A DNA stretch of 64,000 bases, taken from an uncultured Gemmatimonadota bacterium (GTDB taxonomy: Bacteria > GCA-2686955). The notes beneath the pieces are model-generated. The model was not told the origin of the DNA, ran no database searches, and worked only from the letters and a program-made list of their open reading frames with translations. The stretch spans positions 1 to 64,000 of the forward strand of contig CAZBBK010000001.1 in assembly GCA_964490075.1 (NCBI GenBank), written 5' to 3'. Positions within the stretch are counted from its first letter, which is position 1. The number at the start of each line of letters is the position of its first letter. The position numbers and the translations under genes were made by a program. This document shows positions 14,675 through 54,515 of the stretch, in pieces.

Positions 14675-14710
14675 TGGGCGGGACCGGAGTTTAGGGTCGG
14701 CGAAGAAATA

Positions 14711-15809
14711 CTAAGGCGGTCATAAGACACCCGACATTAGGCAATCGTGTACGCCACATCCGGATGGCGGAAGAAGGCTGCAATCTTGCGGGGTGTTCTT
14801 TGTAGCGACCGCAACGCAGAGAGGACTTTCGACTTTAGATCGTCCGGTCCAGTGACCATCGATCGGCCTACTGTGTGGTGCTTCAAGTGGCTCCAGACCT
14901 GTTCGTCTGGGTTCAGTTCCGGGGAATACGAGGGAAGGTAGAAGATCCGGAGATTCCCATTCGTTGCTTCCACGAATCTCTTGACCATGCCGGAGCGATG
15001 GACTGGGTGTCCATCGAGAATCAGATAGACGGGACCTTTGGCGCCGTGGATGAGCCTCTTCAAGAAGTCGATGAACTTGGGGCCATTCAGTCTTCCCGGC
15101 ACGGTCATGAAACGCATTTCCCCACGAGGCGAGACAACGGAGATCAGATTGAGAGAAAAACGAGCACCAGTCGCGCGGACGATCGGTGTTCTGCCTTTCG
15201 GAGCCCACGTTGTTCCACTGTGATAGTCGGATCGAACGCTCGCCTCGTCTCCGAAGTAGATCGTCGCTCCGTGCTGCTTGGCCAGTTTCCGAATTGCGGG
15301 ATATGTCTCCCGCTTCCATTGTTCTACCGCCTCCGAGTTCTGTTGGTAGGCACGGCGCAGTGGCTTCTGCGGACTCAGCCCGAGTCTTCTGAGCAGTCGC
15401 CCAACTGACACCGCACTGAGCCGTACGCCGAATCGTTCCCTGATGAACTCGCGGACCATGTCGCGTGTCCAGAGCGCGAATTCGAACTTCAATTGGAGCG
15501 GATTCTTGCCTGTGACGACATCGTAGACCTTCTTCAATTGCGGCCCCGTGAGCTTGCGCGGACGACCGGGAATTGCACGTGTTCGCAATGCATCCACTCC
15601 ACCCTCGCGGTATTTCGCTAGCCATTCGTATATGCAGGAGCGATGGAAGCCAAGAGCCTCAATCACAGTTTCAGGGCTCTCGCCCTGCTCAACGCGCCTC
15701 ACAGCTCGAATGCGTATCTGTTCGCGGGTGGCATGATCGAGTCGGCGTCCGTCTAATTTCATCATGGGGAGATACTAACACAATGTCGGGTGTTTTATGC
15801 ACTGATTAG
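14711..15809 (-). mobile_element. IS630-family insertion sequence (1099 bp)
   Basis: Imperfect 28-bp terminal IRs CTAAggcggtCATAAgACACCCGACATT / CTAAtcagtgCATAAaACACCCGACATT; TA duplicated at 14709-10 and 15810-11; visibly lower GC than the host. Confidence 0.92.
14737..15765 (-). CDS. IS630-family transposase
   Basis: HTH N-terminus; DDE motifs [20 protein letters not shown]; single intact 342-aa ORF. Confidence 0.97.
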
Positions 15810-15827
15810 TATTTCTTCGCCGACCCT

Positions 15828-50356: not shown

Positions 50357-51328
50357 ATGAGACCCCTATTCGCCGCGCTGCTGGTCACGTTGGCCCCAGC
50401 CGCCTCCTTCGCGACGGAGATCGTGTCCTTCGACGGCGTCACTACGATGTCCCCGCCGAGCGCGATCGCATCGATCCCAACCTACCCGCCCCTGCCCCCG
50501 GACTCGCAAGACCTGGTCTACGACAGCGGCGACTACTCGCAGGGCTCGCGCAACCTGCAGAACGCGGACATCATTCCCGGCTGGCCCTACTGGGCGCACC
50601 AGGTTCGCTTTTCGCCGCTGCCCGGGATGGACGGACCGCTGCTCGAGGTGCGCTATGTGGCCGCCGTGCAGTGGGGCACCTACGCCGACTTCGACCTGGT
50701 GATTCGCAACGCCGGCGGCATCGAGGTGGCCTCACTTTCGGGCCTGAGCGCGGTGATCGACGACACCAACTGGCAGATCGTCGATGTGTCGTCGCTGGGC
50801 TTCGTACCCGGCGCTGCGCCCTTCTCGATCGAGCTGCGCCCTTCCGATGCCTGTGACGGCAGCAACGGCTTCACCATCCCCTTCAGCACCCTGGGATCGA
50901 ACCGCTCGTTCTTCACCAGCGACTGCACCAATCCCTACTACTCCTTCGCCCTGGAGGCGCGCGACCTCTTCGTGCGCGCGGTCATCGCCGACGATCCGGC
51001 CGGACCGGCGCTTTCGATCGAAAGCTTGGTGGCCGGTCAAACCGCCACCATCACGGTCACCGGCGCGACGCCGTACGCACCCGTGGGCGTCGCCTACTCG
51101 CTGGTGGGAGCCGGACCCTCGACCGTCGATACCGGCGCCTGCGGCCTGCAGACCGTCGACCTGAGCGCACCCTTCACCGTCCTGCCGATGCTCAGCGCCG
51201 ACGGTTCGGGGACCGCCACCCACCTGCAGCCGATCCCGCCCACCGCCAGCGGCGTAGCGGTGTGGCTGCACGCCATCGATCTCGGCGCCTGCGCGCTGAC
51301 CAACAGCTTGGCGGAGGTCGTTCAGTAG
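50357..51328 (+). CDS. Secreted hypothetical protein with beta-rich C-terminal domain
   Basis: GGAG RBS, signal peptide, LVYDSG, LVAGQTATITVTGATP...ADGSGTA C-terminal module; strong GC3 codon bias. Confidence 0.8.
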   Translation: MRPLFAALLVTLAPAASFATEIVSFDGVTTMSPPSAIASIPTYPPLPPDSQDLVYDSGDYSQGSRNLQNADIIPGWPYWAHQVRFSPLPGMDGPLLEVRYVAAVQWGTYADFDLVIRNAGGIEVASLSGLSAVIDDTNWQIVDVSSLGFVPGAAPFSIELRPSDACDGSNGFTIPFSTLGSNRSFFTSDCTNPYYSFALEARDLFVRAVIADDPAGPALSIESLVAGQTATITVTGATPYAPVGVAYSLVGAGPSTVDTGACGLQTVDLSAPFTVLPMLSADGSGTATHLQPIPPTASGVAVWLHAIDLGACALTNSLAEVVQ

Positions 51329-51369
51329 GGGCGCATCCGCACCCCCCCGGCCCGGCCGTGTAGCCGATG

Positions 51370-51957
51370 CTAGCGGCCGGGCCCGCGGCCCGCCAGGCGG
51401 CGCAGCACCCCCCACCCCGCCAGGCAGCCGACCGGGTAGATCGGCAGATCGCTCCAGAAGAAGTTGCTGCCGAGCAGCGCCGCGCCCAGAAAGGTCGCGC
51501 GCAGCGCCTCGAGCGGTGCCGGATGCCAAAGGGTCCGCGCAGGGATTACTTCCCATTTTGGCGCCCAGATGTGGTTCAGATCTGGTCGATCGGCGAGTTC
51601 AGAAACCGGAGGAGTAGCAGCGCTACTTCGAGGATTTCGGGGCTCGCCGATCGGCCAGAGGTGGGCTGCAGATGGGATGCCAAAATGGGAAGTTATTCCT
51701 GCGCGGACCCAAAGTTGCAGGAACTCCAGCGCGCAGGTAGCGACACAGACCGCGGCCGCGATGCGTCCGGCCCACTGCGGCCGGGGAACGATCCAGAACA
51801 CCAGCAGCACGAAGAAGATCTCGTAGGCGATCCCGCCGCCCCAGTTGCTGATCCAGAAGCCCCACGGGCCCTCGTAGAAACGCACCCAGAAGCCGAAAGG
51901 CACCACCACCGCGAACGCGATGGCGGTGCGCAGGCGCAGCCGCGCGGGCTCGGTCAT
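51370..51957 (-). CDS. DUF2809-like small membrane protein carrying a 61-aa in-frame MITE-derived insertion
   Basis: GGIAYE...EFLQLW[insert]HPAPLEALRATFLGAALLG..F.W.D...Y..G; removing 183 nt gives a 134-aa protein with a continuous LQLWHP motif. Confidence 0.8.
   Translation of the reverse strand: MTEPARLRLRTAIAFAVVVPFGFWVRFYEGPWGFWISNWGGGIAYEIFFVLLVFWIVPRPQWAGRIAAAVCVATCALEFLQLWVRAGITSHFGIPSAAHLWPIGEPRNPRSSAATPPVSELADRPDLNHIWAPKWEVIPARTLWHPAPLEALRATFLGAALLGSNFFWSDLPIYPVGCLAGWGVLRRLAGRGPGR
51531..51710. mobile_element. 180-bp palindromic MITE
   Basis: Terminal IRs GGGTCCGCGCAGG(G/A)AT(T/A)ACTTCCCATTTTGGC (30/32 match); AAA direct repeat at 51528-30 and 51711-13; lower GC; whole element is self-complementary. 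Confidence 0.9.
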
Positions 51958-51959
51958 GA

Positions 51960-54515
51960 TCAGCCGGCCGCCGCCGCGACGAACGACTCGAGGCGATCGA
52001 ACTGCAAGTAGCGATAGAGATCGCCCGCCACACTCTCGATGCGGCCGGCATGGTCGCGATACTCCTCCGCGCTCGGCAGCCGTCCCAGGATCGCCGCCAC
52101 CGCCGCCAGCTCGGCCGAGGCCAGGTACACGTTGGCGCCGTCGCCGAGCCGATTGGGGAAGTTGCGGGTCGAGGTCGACACCACCGTCGCGCCGGGAGCC
52201 ACCCGCGCCTGGTTGCCCATGCACAGCGAGCATCCCGGCAGCTCGGTGCGCGCGCCAGCCCTGGCGAGAACATTGTAGCAACCCTCGCTGACCAGCGAAT
52301 CGCGGTCCATGCGGGTCGGCGGCGCCACCCAGAGCCGGGTCGGCAGCGGCTCGCCGAAGGTCTCGAGCAACCGAGCCAGGGCCCGGAAATGGCCGATGTT
52401 GGTCATGCAGGAACCGACGAACACCTCGTCGATCTCGGTCCCCGCCAGATCCGAAAGTGTCTTCACATCGTCGGGATCGTTCGGGCAGGCCAGGATCGGC
52501 TCGGTGATGCGCGACATATCGACCTCGATCACGCGCGCGTACTCGGCGTCGGCGTCGGGCTCCAGCAGCGCCGGTGCCGCGATCCAGTCCTCCATCGCCC
52601 GGGCCCGCCGCTCCAGGGTCTCGGCGTCGCCGTAGCCCTCGGCGATCATCCAGCGCAGCAGCACGACGTTGGAGCGCAGATACTCGATGATCGGCTCCTT
52701 GCCGAGGCGGATGGTGCAGCCCGCGGCCGAACGCTCCGCGCTCGCGTCGGAGAGCTCGAAAGCCTGCTCCACCTTGAGATCGGGCAGCCCCTCGATCTCC
52801 ACGATCCGCCCGCTGAAGACGTTCTTCTTGCCCGCCTTCTCCACCGTCAGATCGCCGCTCTCGATCGCCGCCAGGGGGATCGCGTTCACCAGGTCGCGCA
52901 GCGTGATGCCGGGCTGCATCCGGCCCGTGAAACGCACCAGCACCGACTCCGGCATGTCGAGCGGCATCACCCCCTGGGCGGCGGCGAAGGCCACCAGCCC
53001 GGAGCCCGCCGGGAAGGAGATCCCGAGCGGGAAGCGGGTGTGCGAGTCTCCGCCCGTGCCGACCTGGTCGGGCAGAATCATGCGGTTCAGCCAGGAGTGG
53101 ATGATGCCGTCCCCCGGGCGCAACGCCACCCCGCCGCGGCTCTGGAAGAACTCGGGCAGTGAGCCGTGCATCGCCACGTCGATCGGCTTGGGGTAGGCGG
53201 CGGTGTGGCAGAACGACTGCATCACCAGGTCGGCCGAGAAGCGCAGGCAAGCCAGCTCCTTGAGCTCATCGCGGGTCATCGGTCCGGTGGTGTCTTGCGA
53301 GCCGACTGTCGCCATGCGCGGCTCGCAGTAGGCGCCCGGACGCACCCCCTCGACGCCGCAGGCACGGCCGACGATCTTCTGGGCCAGGGTGTAGCCGCGA
53401 CCGGTATCGGCCGGCTGCCGCGGGTGGCGGAACGCGCTCGATTCGCCCAGTCCCAGCCTTGCTCGAGCTCTGGCCGTCAGCGAGCGGCCGATGATCAGGG
53501 GAATGCGCCCTCCGGCGCGCACCTCGTCCAGCAACACTTCGGTCTTGAGATCGAAGCGGGCGATGGTGTCGCCGGCCTGGTCGGTGATGCACCCCTCGTA
53601 GGGATGAATCGTGATCACGTCTCCCATCCGCAGGGCACCGACCTCGCACTCGATCGGCAGCGCGCCCGAGTCTTCCATGGTGTTGAAGAAGATCGGCGCG
53701 ATCTTGCCGCCCAGACAGAAGCCGCCGGCGCGCTTGTTGGGCACCTGCGGAATATCGTCGCCGATATGCCAGAGCACCGAGTTGGTGGCCGACTTGCGCG
53801 ACGATCCGGTGCCGACCACGTCGCCGACGTAGACCAGCGGGTGCCCCTTCTCCTTCAGCTCGGCGAGCTGCTCGATACAGTTGTGGATCCCGGGCCGCGG
53901 GTTCTTGAGCATCGCCAGGGCGTGCAAGGGAATATCGGGGCGCGACCAGGCGTCGGGAGCGGGCGACAGATCGTCGGTATTGGTCTCGCCGTCGACCTTG
54001 AAGACCGTCAGCGTCACCTGCTCGGGCAGGGGCGGACGGGCGTCGAACCAGCTGGCTTCGGCCCACCCTTGCAGCACCTTCTTGGCCTGCTGGTTGCCGC
54101 TTTCGGCCTTGTCCGCCACCTCGTCAAGAGCGTCGCCGACCAGCAGAATGTGCTCGAGCTGCGCCGCCGCCGGCTCTCCCAACTCGGAATCGTCGAGCAG
54201 CTCGACCAGGGTGGCGACGTTGTAGCCGCCGAGCATGGTGCCCAGGATCTCCACGGCGCGCATCCGATCGATCAGAGGCGAGATCCGCTCCCCCCGGGCG
54301 ATGGCGCTCAGGAAGTCGGCCTTGACCCGCGCCGCCGGATCGACTCCGGCCGGCACGCGCTCCTTCAGCAGATTCAGGAGCTGGGCCGAATCCTCCGCGG
54401 CCGGGGGGCTCTCGATCAGCCGCGCCAATGCGGCGGTCTGCTCGGCATCGAGCGGCAGCGGTGGAATGCCCTGCGCGGCGCGCTGCGCCTCGTGCTCGCG
54501 ATACTGCTTCAGCAT
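51960..54515 (-). CDS. acnB: Aconitate hydratase B
   Basis: [71 protein letters not shown]. Confidence 0.98.

Follow-up and report, generated by a model that had tools for sequence, protein, structure and literature searches.

MITEs, or miniature inverted-repeat transposable elements, usually combine conserved ends with a free interior, and those that duplicate a TNA target have a eukaryotic counterpart in Tourist/PIF-Harbinger. Among bacterial systems, the MITEs of the IS5 family (IS1031 group) are small and non-coding, have terminal inverted repeats, occur in many dispersed copies and create a fixed 3-bp TNA duplication. A passage of PMC2516522 gives an insertion site of three nucleotides as a feature of the IS1031 group. 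In-frame fusions caused by intragenic MITEs are not unusual according to passages of a 2024 review (PMC10969869), which list Rickettsia palindromic elements (RPEs), ERIC, QMITE and others, and single out RPEs for their frequency. The same passages describe RPEs as palindromic repeats of ~150-180 bp that can sit in frame and add peptide, and report that RNase III cleaves at Correia repeats and that ERIC at gene 3' ends shows an RNase E effect. Here we analysed a window of 64,000 nt from an uncultured Gemmatimonadota bacterium (contig CAZBBK010000001.1, positions 1 to 64,000). In this window a 180-nt hairpin at 51531-51710 interrupts, in frame, a DUF2809 gene, which encodes a small membrane protein. 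We conclude that the in-frame insertion of this MITE is ordinary and the structure of its cargo unusual.

The element is a near-perfect palindrome of 180 nt that holds no transposase gene and carries only read-through frames. Its parts are as follows.

51531-51710, + strand: MITE copy of subfamily A, a whole-length hairpin; the + strand is the better-folding ('top') strand.
51531-51562, + strand: left terminal inverted repeat, 32 nt, from comparison of the arms.
51679-51710, + strand: right terminal inverted repeat, 32 nt, 94% complementary to the left repeat.
51528-51530, unstranded: left target-site duplication, AAA; the pre-insertion site is C-AAA-G.
51711-51713, unstranded: right target-site duplication, AAA, read in the sequence; the 3-bp duplication is family-wide.
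51601-51639, + strand: apex module of ~39 nt, with an 8-bp stem and triloop, a GA/GA internal loop and a closing stem.
51567-51570 and 51578-51581, + strand: left-arm AGAT motifs, opposite 51657-51660 and 51670-51673.

The palindrome of 180 bp, its 32-bp repeats, the AAA duplication and pairing over the whole length had all been described in an earlier note on this DNA, and every one of these points was reproduced. The note had also remarked that apparent mismatches were G-U compatible on the + strand, and this copy indeed has 10 G-U pairs on the + strand versus 1 on the - strand. Folding of both strands gave a single long hairpin for the + strand (-142.8 kcal/mol, z -18.3), which none of 200 shuffles equalled (-64.9 ± 4.3 kcal/mol), compared with -107.5 kcal/mol (z -13.9) for the - strand. 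The left-arm AGAT motifs face 51657-51660, which reads AGAG here and AGAT in most of the other copies, and 51670-51673, which reads AGAT; this creates purine-purine G.A/A.G mismatches, one of them G.G in this copy, on the + strand only.

The element is one member of a dispersed family. A search with nhmmer of the genome that contains the window (G000; 5.70 Mb, 136 contigs, 68.4% G+C) returned 41 merged loci. Six match the apex only and belong to another family, and one is 39 nt long; the family of the element, hereafter family 1, has 34 loci of at least 45 nt, 15 of them full length (178-192 nt). Two genomes of the same taxonomic family contain 36 (G002) and 30 (G003) DNA matches, and a genome of the same class (G004) has one weak match. 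Family 1 was not found in G001 (83% complete) nor in 36 other genomes. The second copy that a mobile MITE calls for, as the earlier note had it, thus exists many times over.

Insertion leaves a recognisable footprint. After three rows identical between loci were dropped, 50 distinct full-length copies remained, and 27 of these have identical 3-nt flanks (shuffled partners: mean 8.0, maximum 17 in 2000 trials); identical 4-nt flanks were seen in only one. The duplicated triplets are TTA (9), TAA (5), TCA (5), AAA (4) and others (4). The nucleotides outside them are mostly C and G, which gives a target of C-TNA-G. The ends are conserved in the 47 copies aligned below; they start with GGGTC and finish with GACCC, and the terminal CCC of the element followed by TNA and G recreates a C-TNA-G site. 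This fits the occurrence of head-to-tail elements that have one TNA in common (L036:1490-1510, L043:1490-1870 and L053:300-320). With its small size, terminal inverted repeats, fixed-length duplication and many dispersed copies in unrelated flanks, the family has the hallmarks of a prokaryotic MITE. The sequence at 51531-51710 is one copy of a mobile hairpin MITE family, with mobility, target and duplication all apparent from the copies.

Several variants of family 1 were seen as well. At C18:60040-60090 of G000 lies a mini-element of ~41 nt, with family-1 ends, a short interior and AAA on both sides. Two elements of ~90 nt (C69:1989 and C4:97878) have one deletion junction in common, distinct from that of the ~100-nt set described below. 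Just inside the ends, element positions 18-27 and their partners (alignment columns 18-26 with 161-169) form a hypervariable yet paired block, with at least 10 different sequences among subfamilies, each with a matching partner. L034 and L079 are chimeras, with arms from different subfamilies.

To describe pairing across the family we aligned 47 full-length copies, leaving out L016, L067 and L090, which have large insertions or deletions. RNAalifold gave a consensus of 76 pairs, 48 of which showed compensatory changes. Standard pairs occupied 95.1% of cells, a value reached by none of 500 shuffles (86.2 ± 0.3%); slid partners gave 35-43%, and the bottom strand would hold 83.5%. The 3562 cells comprised 2923 Watson-Crick pairs, 463 G-U pairs on the top strand and 50 A-C combinations on top, which are G-U on the bottom strand. 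The asymmetry depended on how widely a state was distributed. Pair states present in a single copy were G-U in 14 cases and A-C in 20, whereas those present in at least four copies were G-U in 22 cases and A-C in 1 (Fisher p = 1.8e-5, for copies that are not independent). Columns such as 46-140, 54-132, 65-121, 69-117 and 70-116 alternate between C-G, U-G and U-A, and A-C is almost never frequent. Two conserved places have AGAT opposite AGAT, and the apex has GA opposite GA; the resulting mismatches are purine-purine on the top strand and pyrimidine-pyrimidine on the bottom. Tandem G.A pairs are stabilising. The top strand folded better in 15/15 of the family-1 copies of G000, by 15.5-41.4 kcal/mol.

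Since the shared changes are asymmetric and the private ones symmetric, both a mutational bias and selection on every copy are argued against. In our reading, the amplified lineages kept the top-strand fold and single copies decay symmetrically, so that the top strand, whether in RNA or in single-stranded DNA (ssDNA) form, would matter for the success of the element. The covariation is strand-specific, and the constraint behind it would act either on amplification or on a function of the cargo. The earlier note had attributed the G-U bias to selection on one single strand and not just on the ends of an insertion sequence (IS); the counts (463 versus 50 overall, 22:1 among shared states) support that view.

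The apex is not confined to family 1. A second family in G000 is a palindrome of ~163 nt in six copies, with other ends and the same ~39-nt apex.

C1:115901, C11:27872, C24:12953, C3:168264, C34:29437 and C71:8330, unstranded, in G000 outside the window: family 2 loci.

Only the apex is common to families 1 and 2. Direct repeats resembling TCGCTAG flank family 2, whose end matches that of a PF01609 IS in G003:C805 (L041:205), and the top strand as defined by the apex folds better in 6/6 copies. An exact scan for the apex pattern in ~185,000 species, with one genome each, found 26 loci in 5 records of metagenome-assembled genomes (MAGs); 1 JGI metagenome contig and 0 viral contigs carried it. 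Two further families, in G041 and G042, have arms and ends unrelated to those of family 1 and a nearly identical apex, and in 4/4 copies of each the top strand was better by 19-31 kcal/mol, with 7-13 G-U pairs versus 1-5. The hosts are distant: RpoB of G000 is 87% identical to that of G043, from the same taxonomic family, and 53% identical to those of G041, G042 and G044, which are 60-62% identical among themselves. A deletion derivative of ~100 nt, which lacks the apex and also the inner arms and has one common junction, sits at six unrelated loci of G000.

C15:84904, C27:12468, C35:25297, C44:13235, C53:13636 and C56:28639, unstranded, in G000: apex-less elements of ~100 nt.

Because this derivative occupies six unrelated loci, the apex seems dispensable for movement, an inference weakened by the finding that none of the six copies has identical 3-nt flanks.

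Could the conserved tip be the object of selection in its own right? The apex, the G.A tandems and the G-U pairs may together form a functional single-stranded module, of RNA or ssDNA, that is selected for a role other than transposition and rides on differing MITE chassis. We hold this as a tentative possibility, one that would add to the explanation by a mobile hairpin MITE and not exclude it. A module of this kind would account for a tip that is nearly identical in four families with unrelated arms and ends, in hosts whose RpoB sequences differ as widely as given above, and for the same strand folding better in all four. The apparent dispensability of the apex for movement points in the same direction, as does the match of family 2's end to a PF01609 IS, a transposase type unlike that behind the 3-bp duplication of family 1. 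Other observations speak against a module. No Rfam family matched the element at E ≤ 1, two chance-level matches lying outside it, and a sigma-70-type promoter scan of the element found 0 sites. There was no orientation bias with respect to adjoining genes, whose sense strand was the bottom strand 23 times and the top strand 16 times by hand count, nor with respect to GC skew (16 versus 18). Single copies look unconstrained, in that private changes are strand-symmetric, the apex is rare at 26 loci in 5 of the records scanned, and the apex-less copies lack identical 3-nt flanks. The more specific proposal, that apex, G.A tandems and G-U pairs are a protein-binding RNA or ssDNA cargo, unneeded for transposition and spread across phyla on varied chassis and transposases, we consider doubtful.

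The pairing might instead have been produced at the DNA level, by template switching, by conversion from arm to arm or by repeated birth from long IS ends, with the G-U pairs a frozen ancestral accident. It is true that all copies come from few masters and that eight columns have a G-U majority, and the replacement of both arms block by block at positions 18-27, together with the chimeras L034 and L079, shows that recombination has taken place. Copying from arm to arm, however, would yield Watson-Crick pairs and not G-U. The columns pass through C-G, U-G and U-A with almost no frequent A-C, and the bias towards the same strand recurs in families whose arms are unrelated in sequence. We therefore regard an origin by DNA-level processes as unlikely, and favour a constraint on the top strand of a mobile MITE.

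The gene that received the insertion, and its upstream neighbour, are these.

51370-51957, - strand: DUF2809 gene with insert, 195 residues, of which residues 85-145 are the MITE plus the duplication.
51960-54515, - strand: acnB (aconitase B), with the domains Aconitase_B_N, Aconitase_2_N and Aconitase.

The open reading frame (ORF) at 51370-51957 matches Pfam DUF2809 (PF10990, E 1.9e-15) as two stretches. Element and duplication together measure 180+3 = 183 nt, or 61 codons, which are stop-free in the DUF2809 frame; the insertion thus lengthens the ORF by 61 residues without closing it. On the gene strand the sequence reads ...CAA C-TTT-[element]-TTT-GG CAT..., and cutting out the 183 nt restores the motif LQLWHP, which the earlier note had described as cleanly split (LQLW|HP). 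A search of 5.8 billion proteins gave 9 matches for the interrupted protein, one of them the protein itself. In an alignment, six out of six DUF2809 homologues (P0002-P0005, P0007 and P0008; 126-144 residues) have no counterpart of residues 85-145 and run ...EFLQL|W(H/K/Q/R)P... over the insert site, so that the segment is by no means carried by all homologues. The two remaining matches (P0006 and P0009), both metagenome proteins, match only the peptide derived from the element.

The stop codon of acnB lies 2 nt upstream of the DUF2809 start (window 51955-51962, - strand), and the DUF2809 gene is the final one before a convergent gene. DUF2809 is thus probably the last gene of an acnB operon, and the two are probably co-transcribed. 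An AlphaFold model, which draws on a shallow 9-row alignment, gave block means of the confidence score pLDDT (10 residues each) of 88-96 over residues 1-80, 61 over residues 81-90 and 92-94 over residues 171-190; over the blocks of the insert the means were 48-59. The insert accordingly looks, in the model, like a floppy loop after the third helix, a prediction that is silent on function.

Both junctions of the insertion are crossed without differences by contigs from 4 marine metagenome DNA runs of one study, which may include the window's own source sample. The left junction is covered by X1 record 1 (50900-51574) and X4 record 26 (51382-51575), and the right by X1 record 8 (51663-52400) and X2 record 15 (51613-52236). 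This excludes an artefact of the window's assembly as the source of the insertion. Depth is several-fold higher inside the element, as expected of a repeat. None of the contigs from the 4 runs spans the whole element, and no empty-site form was seen among them.

Is the in-frame position a property of the family, as in RPEs? For an inventory of genic copies we used a home-made gene caller (codon log-odds, trained on 1003 long ORFs with high GC3, the G+C content at third codon positions), which returned the expected genes, the interrupted DUF2809 gene included, when tested on 48-57 kb of the window. A copy counted as inside a gene if more than 25 nt of called gene lay on each side. Only one of the 34 loci in G000, the DUF2809 copy, was inside a called gene, and 0 of the 43 copies in loci of G002, G003 and G004 were. 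Pfam added a case in G003, where a family-1 copy at L041:843 cuts the PF01609 transposase gene of another IS (L041:380-1022), whose ORF continues into the family-1 element. Much more often the element adjoins a gene. A gene 3' end lies within 30 nt at 17 of the 34 G000 loci and at 15 of the 43 copies in relatives (hand count), or ~40%, the duplicated TNA often being the stop codon itself, and in ~9 copies the neighbouring ORF extends 16-24 nt into the element. We attribute this abutment to the target, because C-TNA-G sites in a 68% G+C genome are mostly stop codons.

The many copies just past stop codons resemble Correia (NEMIS) and ERIC elements, which are likewise hairpin repeats beside genes. 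Those elements fold in transcripts, whereas family 1 is known here from DNA. Family 1 also differs from both in showing no orientation bias to the neighbouring gene, and from Correia elements, whose duplication is TA, in duplicating TNA.

With RPEs the family has in common that a palindromic repeat of this size can sit in frame and add peptide. RPEs lie mostly inside ORFs, whereas only 1/34 of the G000 copies and at least 1/43 of the relatives' copies of family 1 do, and unit length plus duplication is divisible by three in only 25/47 copies. The suggestion of an RPE-like, protein-invading family, made in the earlier note, does not stand up to these counts. That the family is adapted to entering coding regions and supplying a tolerated peptide might be read from the frame used by DUF2809 (bottom frame 2), which is open in 44/47 copies, from the three open frames of the copy at 51531-51710 (shuffled palindromes have 0.69 on average and three or more in 3%), from the recurrence of the same element peptide in P0006 and P0009 and from the in-frame MITE fusions in several bacteria that the review describes (PMC10969869). 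The 44/47 copies owe the open frame to common descent, however, and are no independent cases; this G+C content makes stops rare; and P0006 and P0009 align over the element only and may be spurious ORF calls. Such an adaptation is very improbable. The data point to in-gene copies being no commoner than the share of genic C-TNA-G sites predicts. As three of its six frames are open, a copy like the one at 51531-51710 has a roughly even chance of leaving an ORF open when it lands in a gene. The surviving DUF2809 frame is a matter of chance plus survivorship and not a family property, and the insertion is an ordinary MITE accident, one more case of a known type.

The window also holds an IS that seemed at first to supply the transposase.

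14694-15826, unstranded: MITE subfamily-B mini-hairpin split by an IS630 element at its central TA; ends at 14694-14708 and 15812-15826.
~14711-15809, unstranded: IS630-family IS proper, with the transposase at 14737-15765 (- strand) and a TA duplication, inside a 32-nt palindrome of MITE ends.

That family 1 is an IS630/Tc1-type (Stowaway-like) MITE mobilised by this IS was our interim reading, on the grounds that the 17 nt that terminate subfamily B recur unchanged as the outer 17 nt on both sides of 14694-15826 and that the 342-residue protein matches DDE_3 (E 4e-36) and IS630-type helix-turn-helix domains, but we now give it hardly any credence, and reject IS630 as the parent: the match to a 95%-identical copy in G003:C218 breaks off precisely at the inner TA, relatives in complete genomes, 50-68% identical, have their ends at a TA homologous to it, the MITE duplication is 3 bp (TNA) and not TA, and the interiors of IS and MITE are unrelated. 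Because the G003:C218 copy and the relatives end at the inner TA, we place the IS proper at ~14711-15809; the 17-nt identity lies outside the moving unit, and the IS is nested in a mini-hairpin. The search for a transposase flanked by the same repeat, proposed in the earlier note, here returned a false positive.

A second candidate, a Transposase_29 IS, was rejected as well. Its full copy in G002:C108 (L205:183-2650) encodes a 572-residue protein (PF21804, E 1.4e-173; no match in NCBIfam) and is nested in a MITE, which resumes in register past a 5-bp AACTT repeat. This IS is multi-copy and breaks the G000 assembly at six contig ends.

C112:1-74, C126:4105-4165, C101:1-55, C53:41378-41450, C5:1-51 and C82:20784-20848, unstranded, in G000: Transposase_29 contig ends.

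At four of the six junctions the IS follows position 21 of a MITE arm; the other two (C5 and C82) are in ordinary DNA beside TAACTT. The AACTT repeat, the MITE in register beyond it and the insertions in ordinary DNA together show that the Transposase_29 IS is nested.

Insertion into palindromes has precedents: IS1397 and ISKpn1 target palindromic units (PU/REP), and IS110-family elements target REP. Here, too, two unrelated ISs (IS630 and Transposase_29) lie inside the family-1 hairpin. The targets differ in being MITE arms and not REPs, the specificity is drawn from few junctions, and the Transposase_29 IS occurs also in ordinary DNA next to TAACTT. Since an IS nested in a MITE hairpin comes to have terminal nucleotides in common with the MITE, 'the same inverted repeat' is no proof of parenthood.

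Judged by the 3-bp TNA duplication alone, the mobilising enzyme would be of the IS5 family (IS1031-like). The available passages of a Paracoccus paper (PMC3281130) do not mention duplication length. Family 1 differs from IS5-family MITEs in that no IS5-family element with its ends was found in G000, G002 and G003, in that its full 180 nt form a covarying hairpin with strand-specific G-U and G.A pairs, and in that its apex is more conserved than its ends. No transposase adjoins a solo end at C68:31359, and no ends in common were found between the G041 and G042 families and the IS630 elements considered as their partners. Searching for 13-mer ends with 2 mismatches was too unspecific to help (1818 matches, 1760 of them outside MITE loci).

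The course of events may then have been as follows. A transposase of DDE type, acting in trans, would recognise ends of ~13-17 nt (GGGTC...GACCC), cut a C-TNA-G target with a 3-nt stagger and so duplicate TNA. The copy at 51531-51710 would have hit C-AAA-G within the Leu-Trp codons of the conserved LQLWHP motif, in the DUF2809 gene that follows acnB, and its 183-nt unit without a stop would keep the ORF open and add 61 residues as a predicted floppy loop. Lineages that amplify would keep top-strand pairing through G-U intermediates and G.A tandems.

Several observations weigh against this account of a mobile hairpin MITE that landed in frame by chance and is constrained on its top strand. An autonomous element with family-1 ends was not found in G000, G002 and G003, whose assemblies are fragmented; in the same genomes none of the 11 PF01609 matches is flanked by family-1 ends, scans for PF13586 and PF13359 gave no match, and the Transposase_29 IS, being nested too, provides no parent element. 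A perfect duplication is lacking in 23/50 copies. The copies are related by descent, so that copy counts and the Fisher test overstate independence, and a single inherited state could explain the eight columns with a G-U majority. Instead of forming G.A pairs, the AGAT motifs of the two arms could be a protein's binding site in double-stranded DNA, directly repeated. The gene caller missed at least one in-gene copy, that at L041, and the locus C6:130929, at a contig end, was left undecided. No DUF2809 orthologue was found in G001-G004, where only the element-derived part of the query matched, and an empty site was not found at the DNA level. The interrupted DUF2809 protein is a predicted product, known here from its ORF. 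With these points taken into account, we put the probability of the whole explanation (a mobile hairpin MITE, a chance in-frame landing and a constraint on the top strand) at roughly 0.8.

What sets family 1 apart is less its position in a gene than its hairpin and tip. As far as our literature searches went, neither a strand-specific constraint nor a tip common to several families has been described; no MITE families with a common tip under different ends turned up, in searches that were not designed to find one. The present data set shows a MITE hairpin that is constrained on one strand, and it separates selection on amplifying lineages from the decay of single copies. The usual MITE pattern is turned round here: families whose hosts stand at phylum-level distance have a tip in common under arms and ends that are unrelated. 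Together, the constraint on a single strand and the cross-family tip make the element a variant worth modest follow-up. If the tip were indeed part of a functional single-stranded module, MITEs would be vehicles for a small structured element, and not only parasites of ISs.

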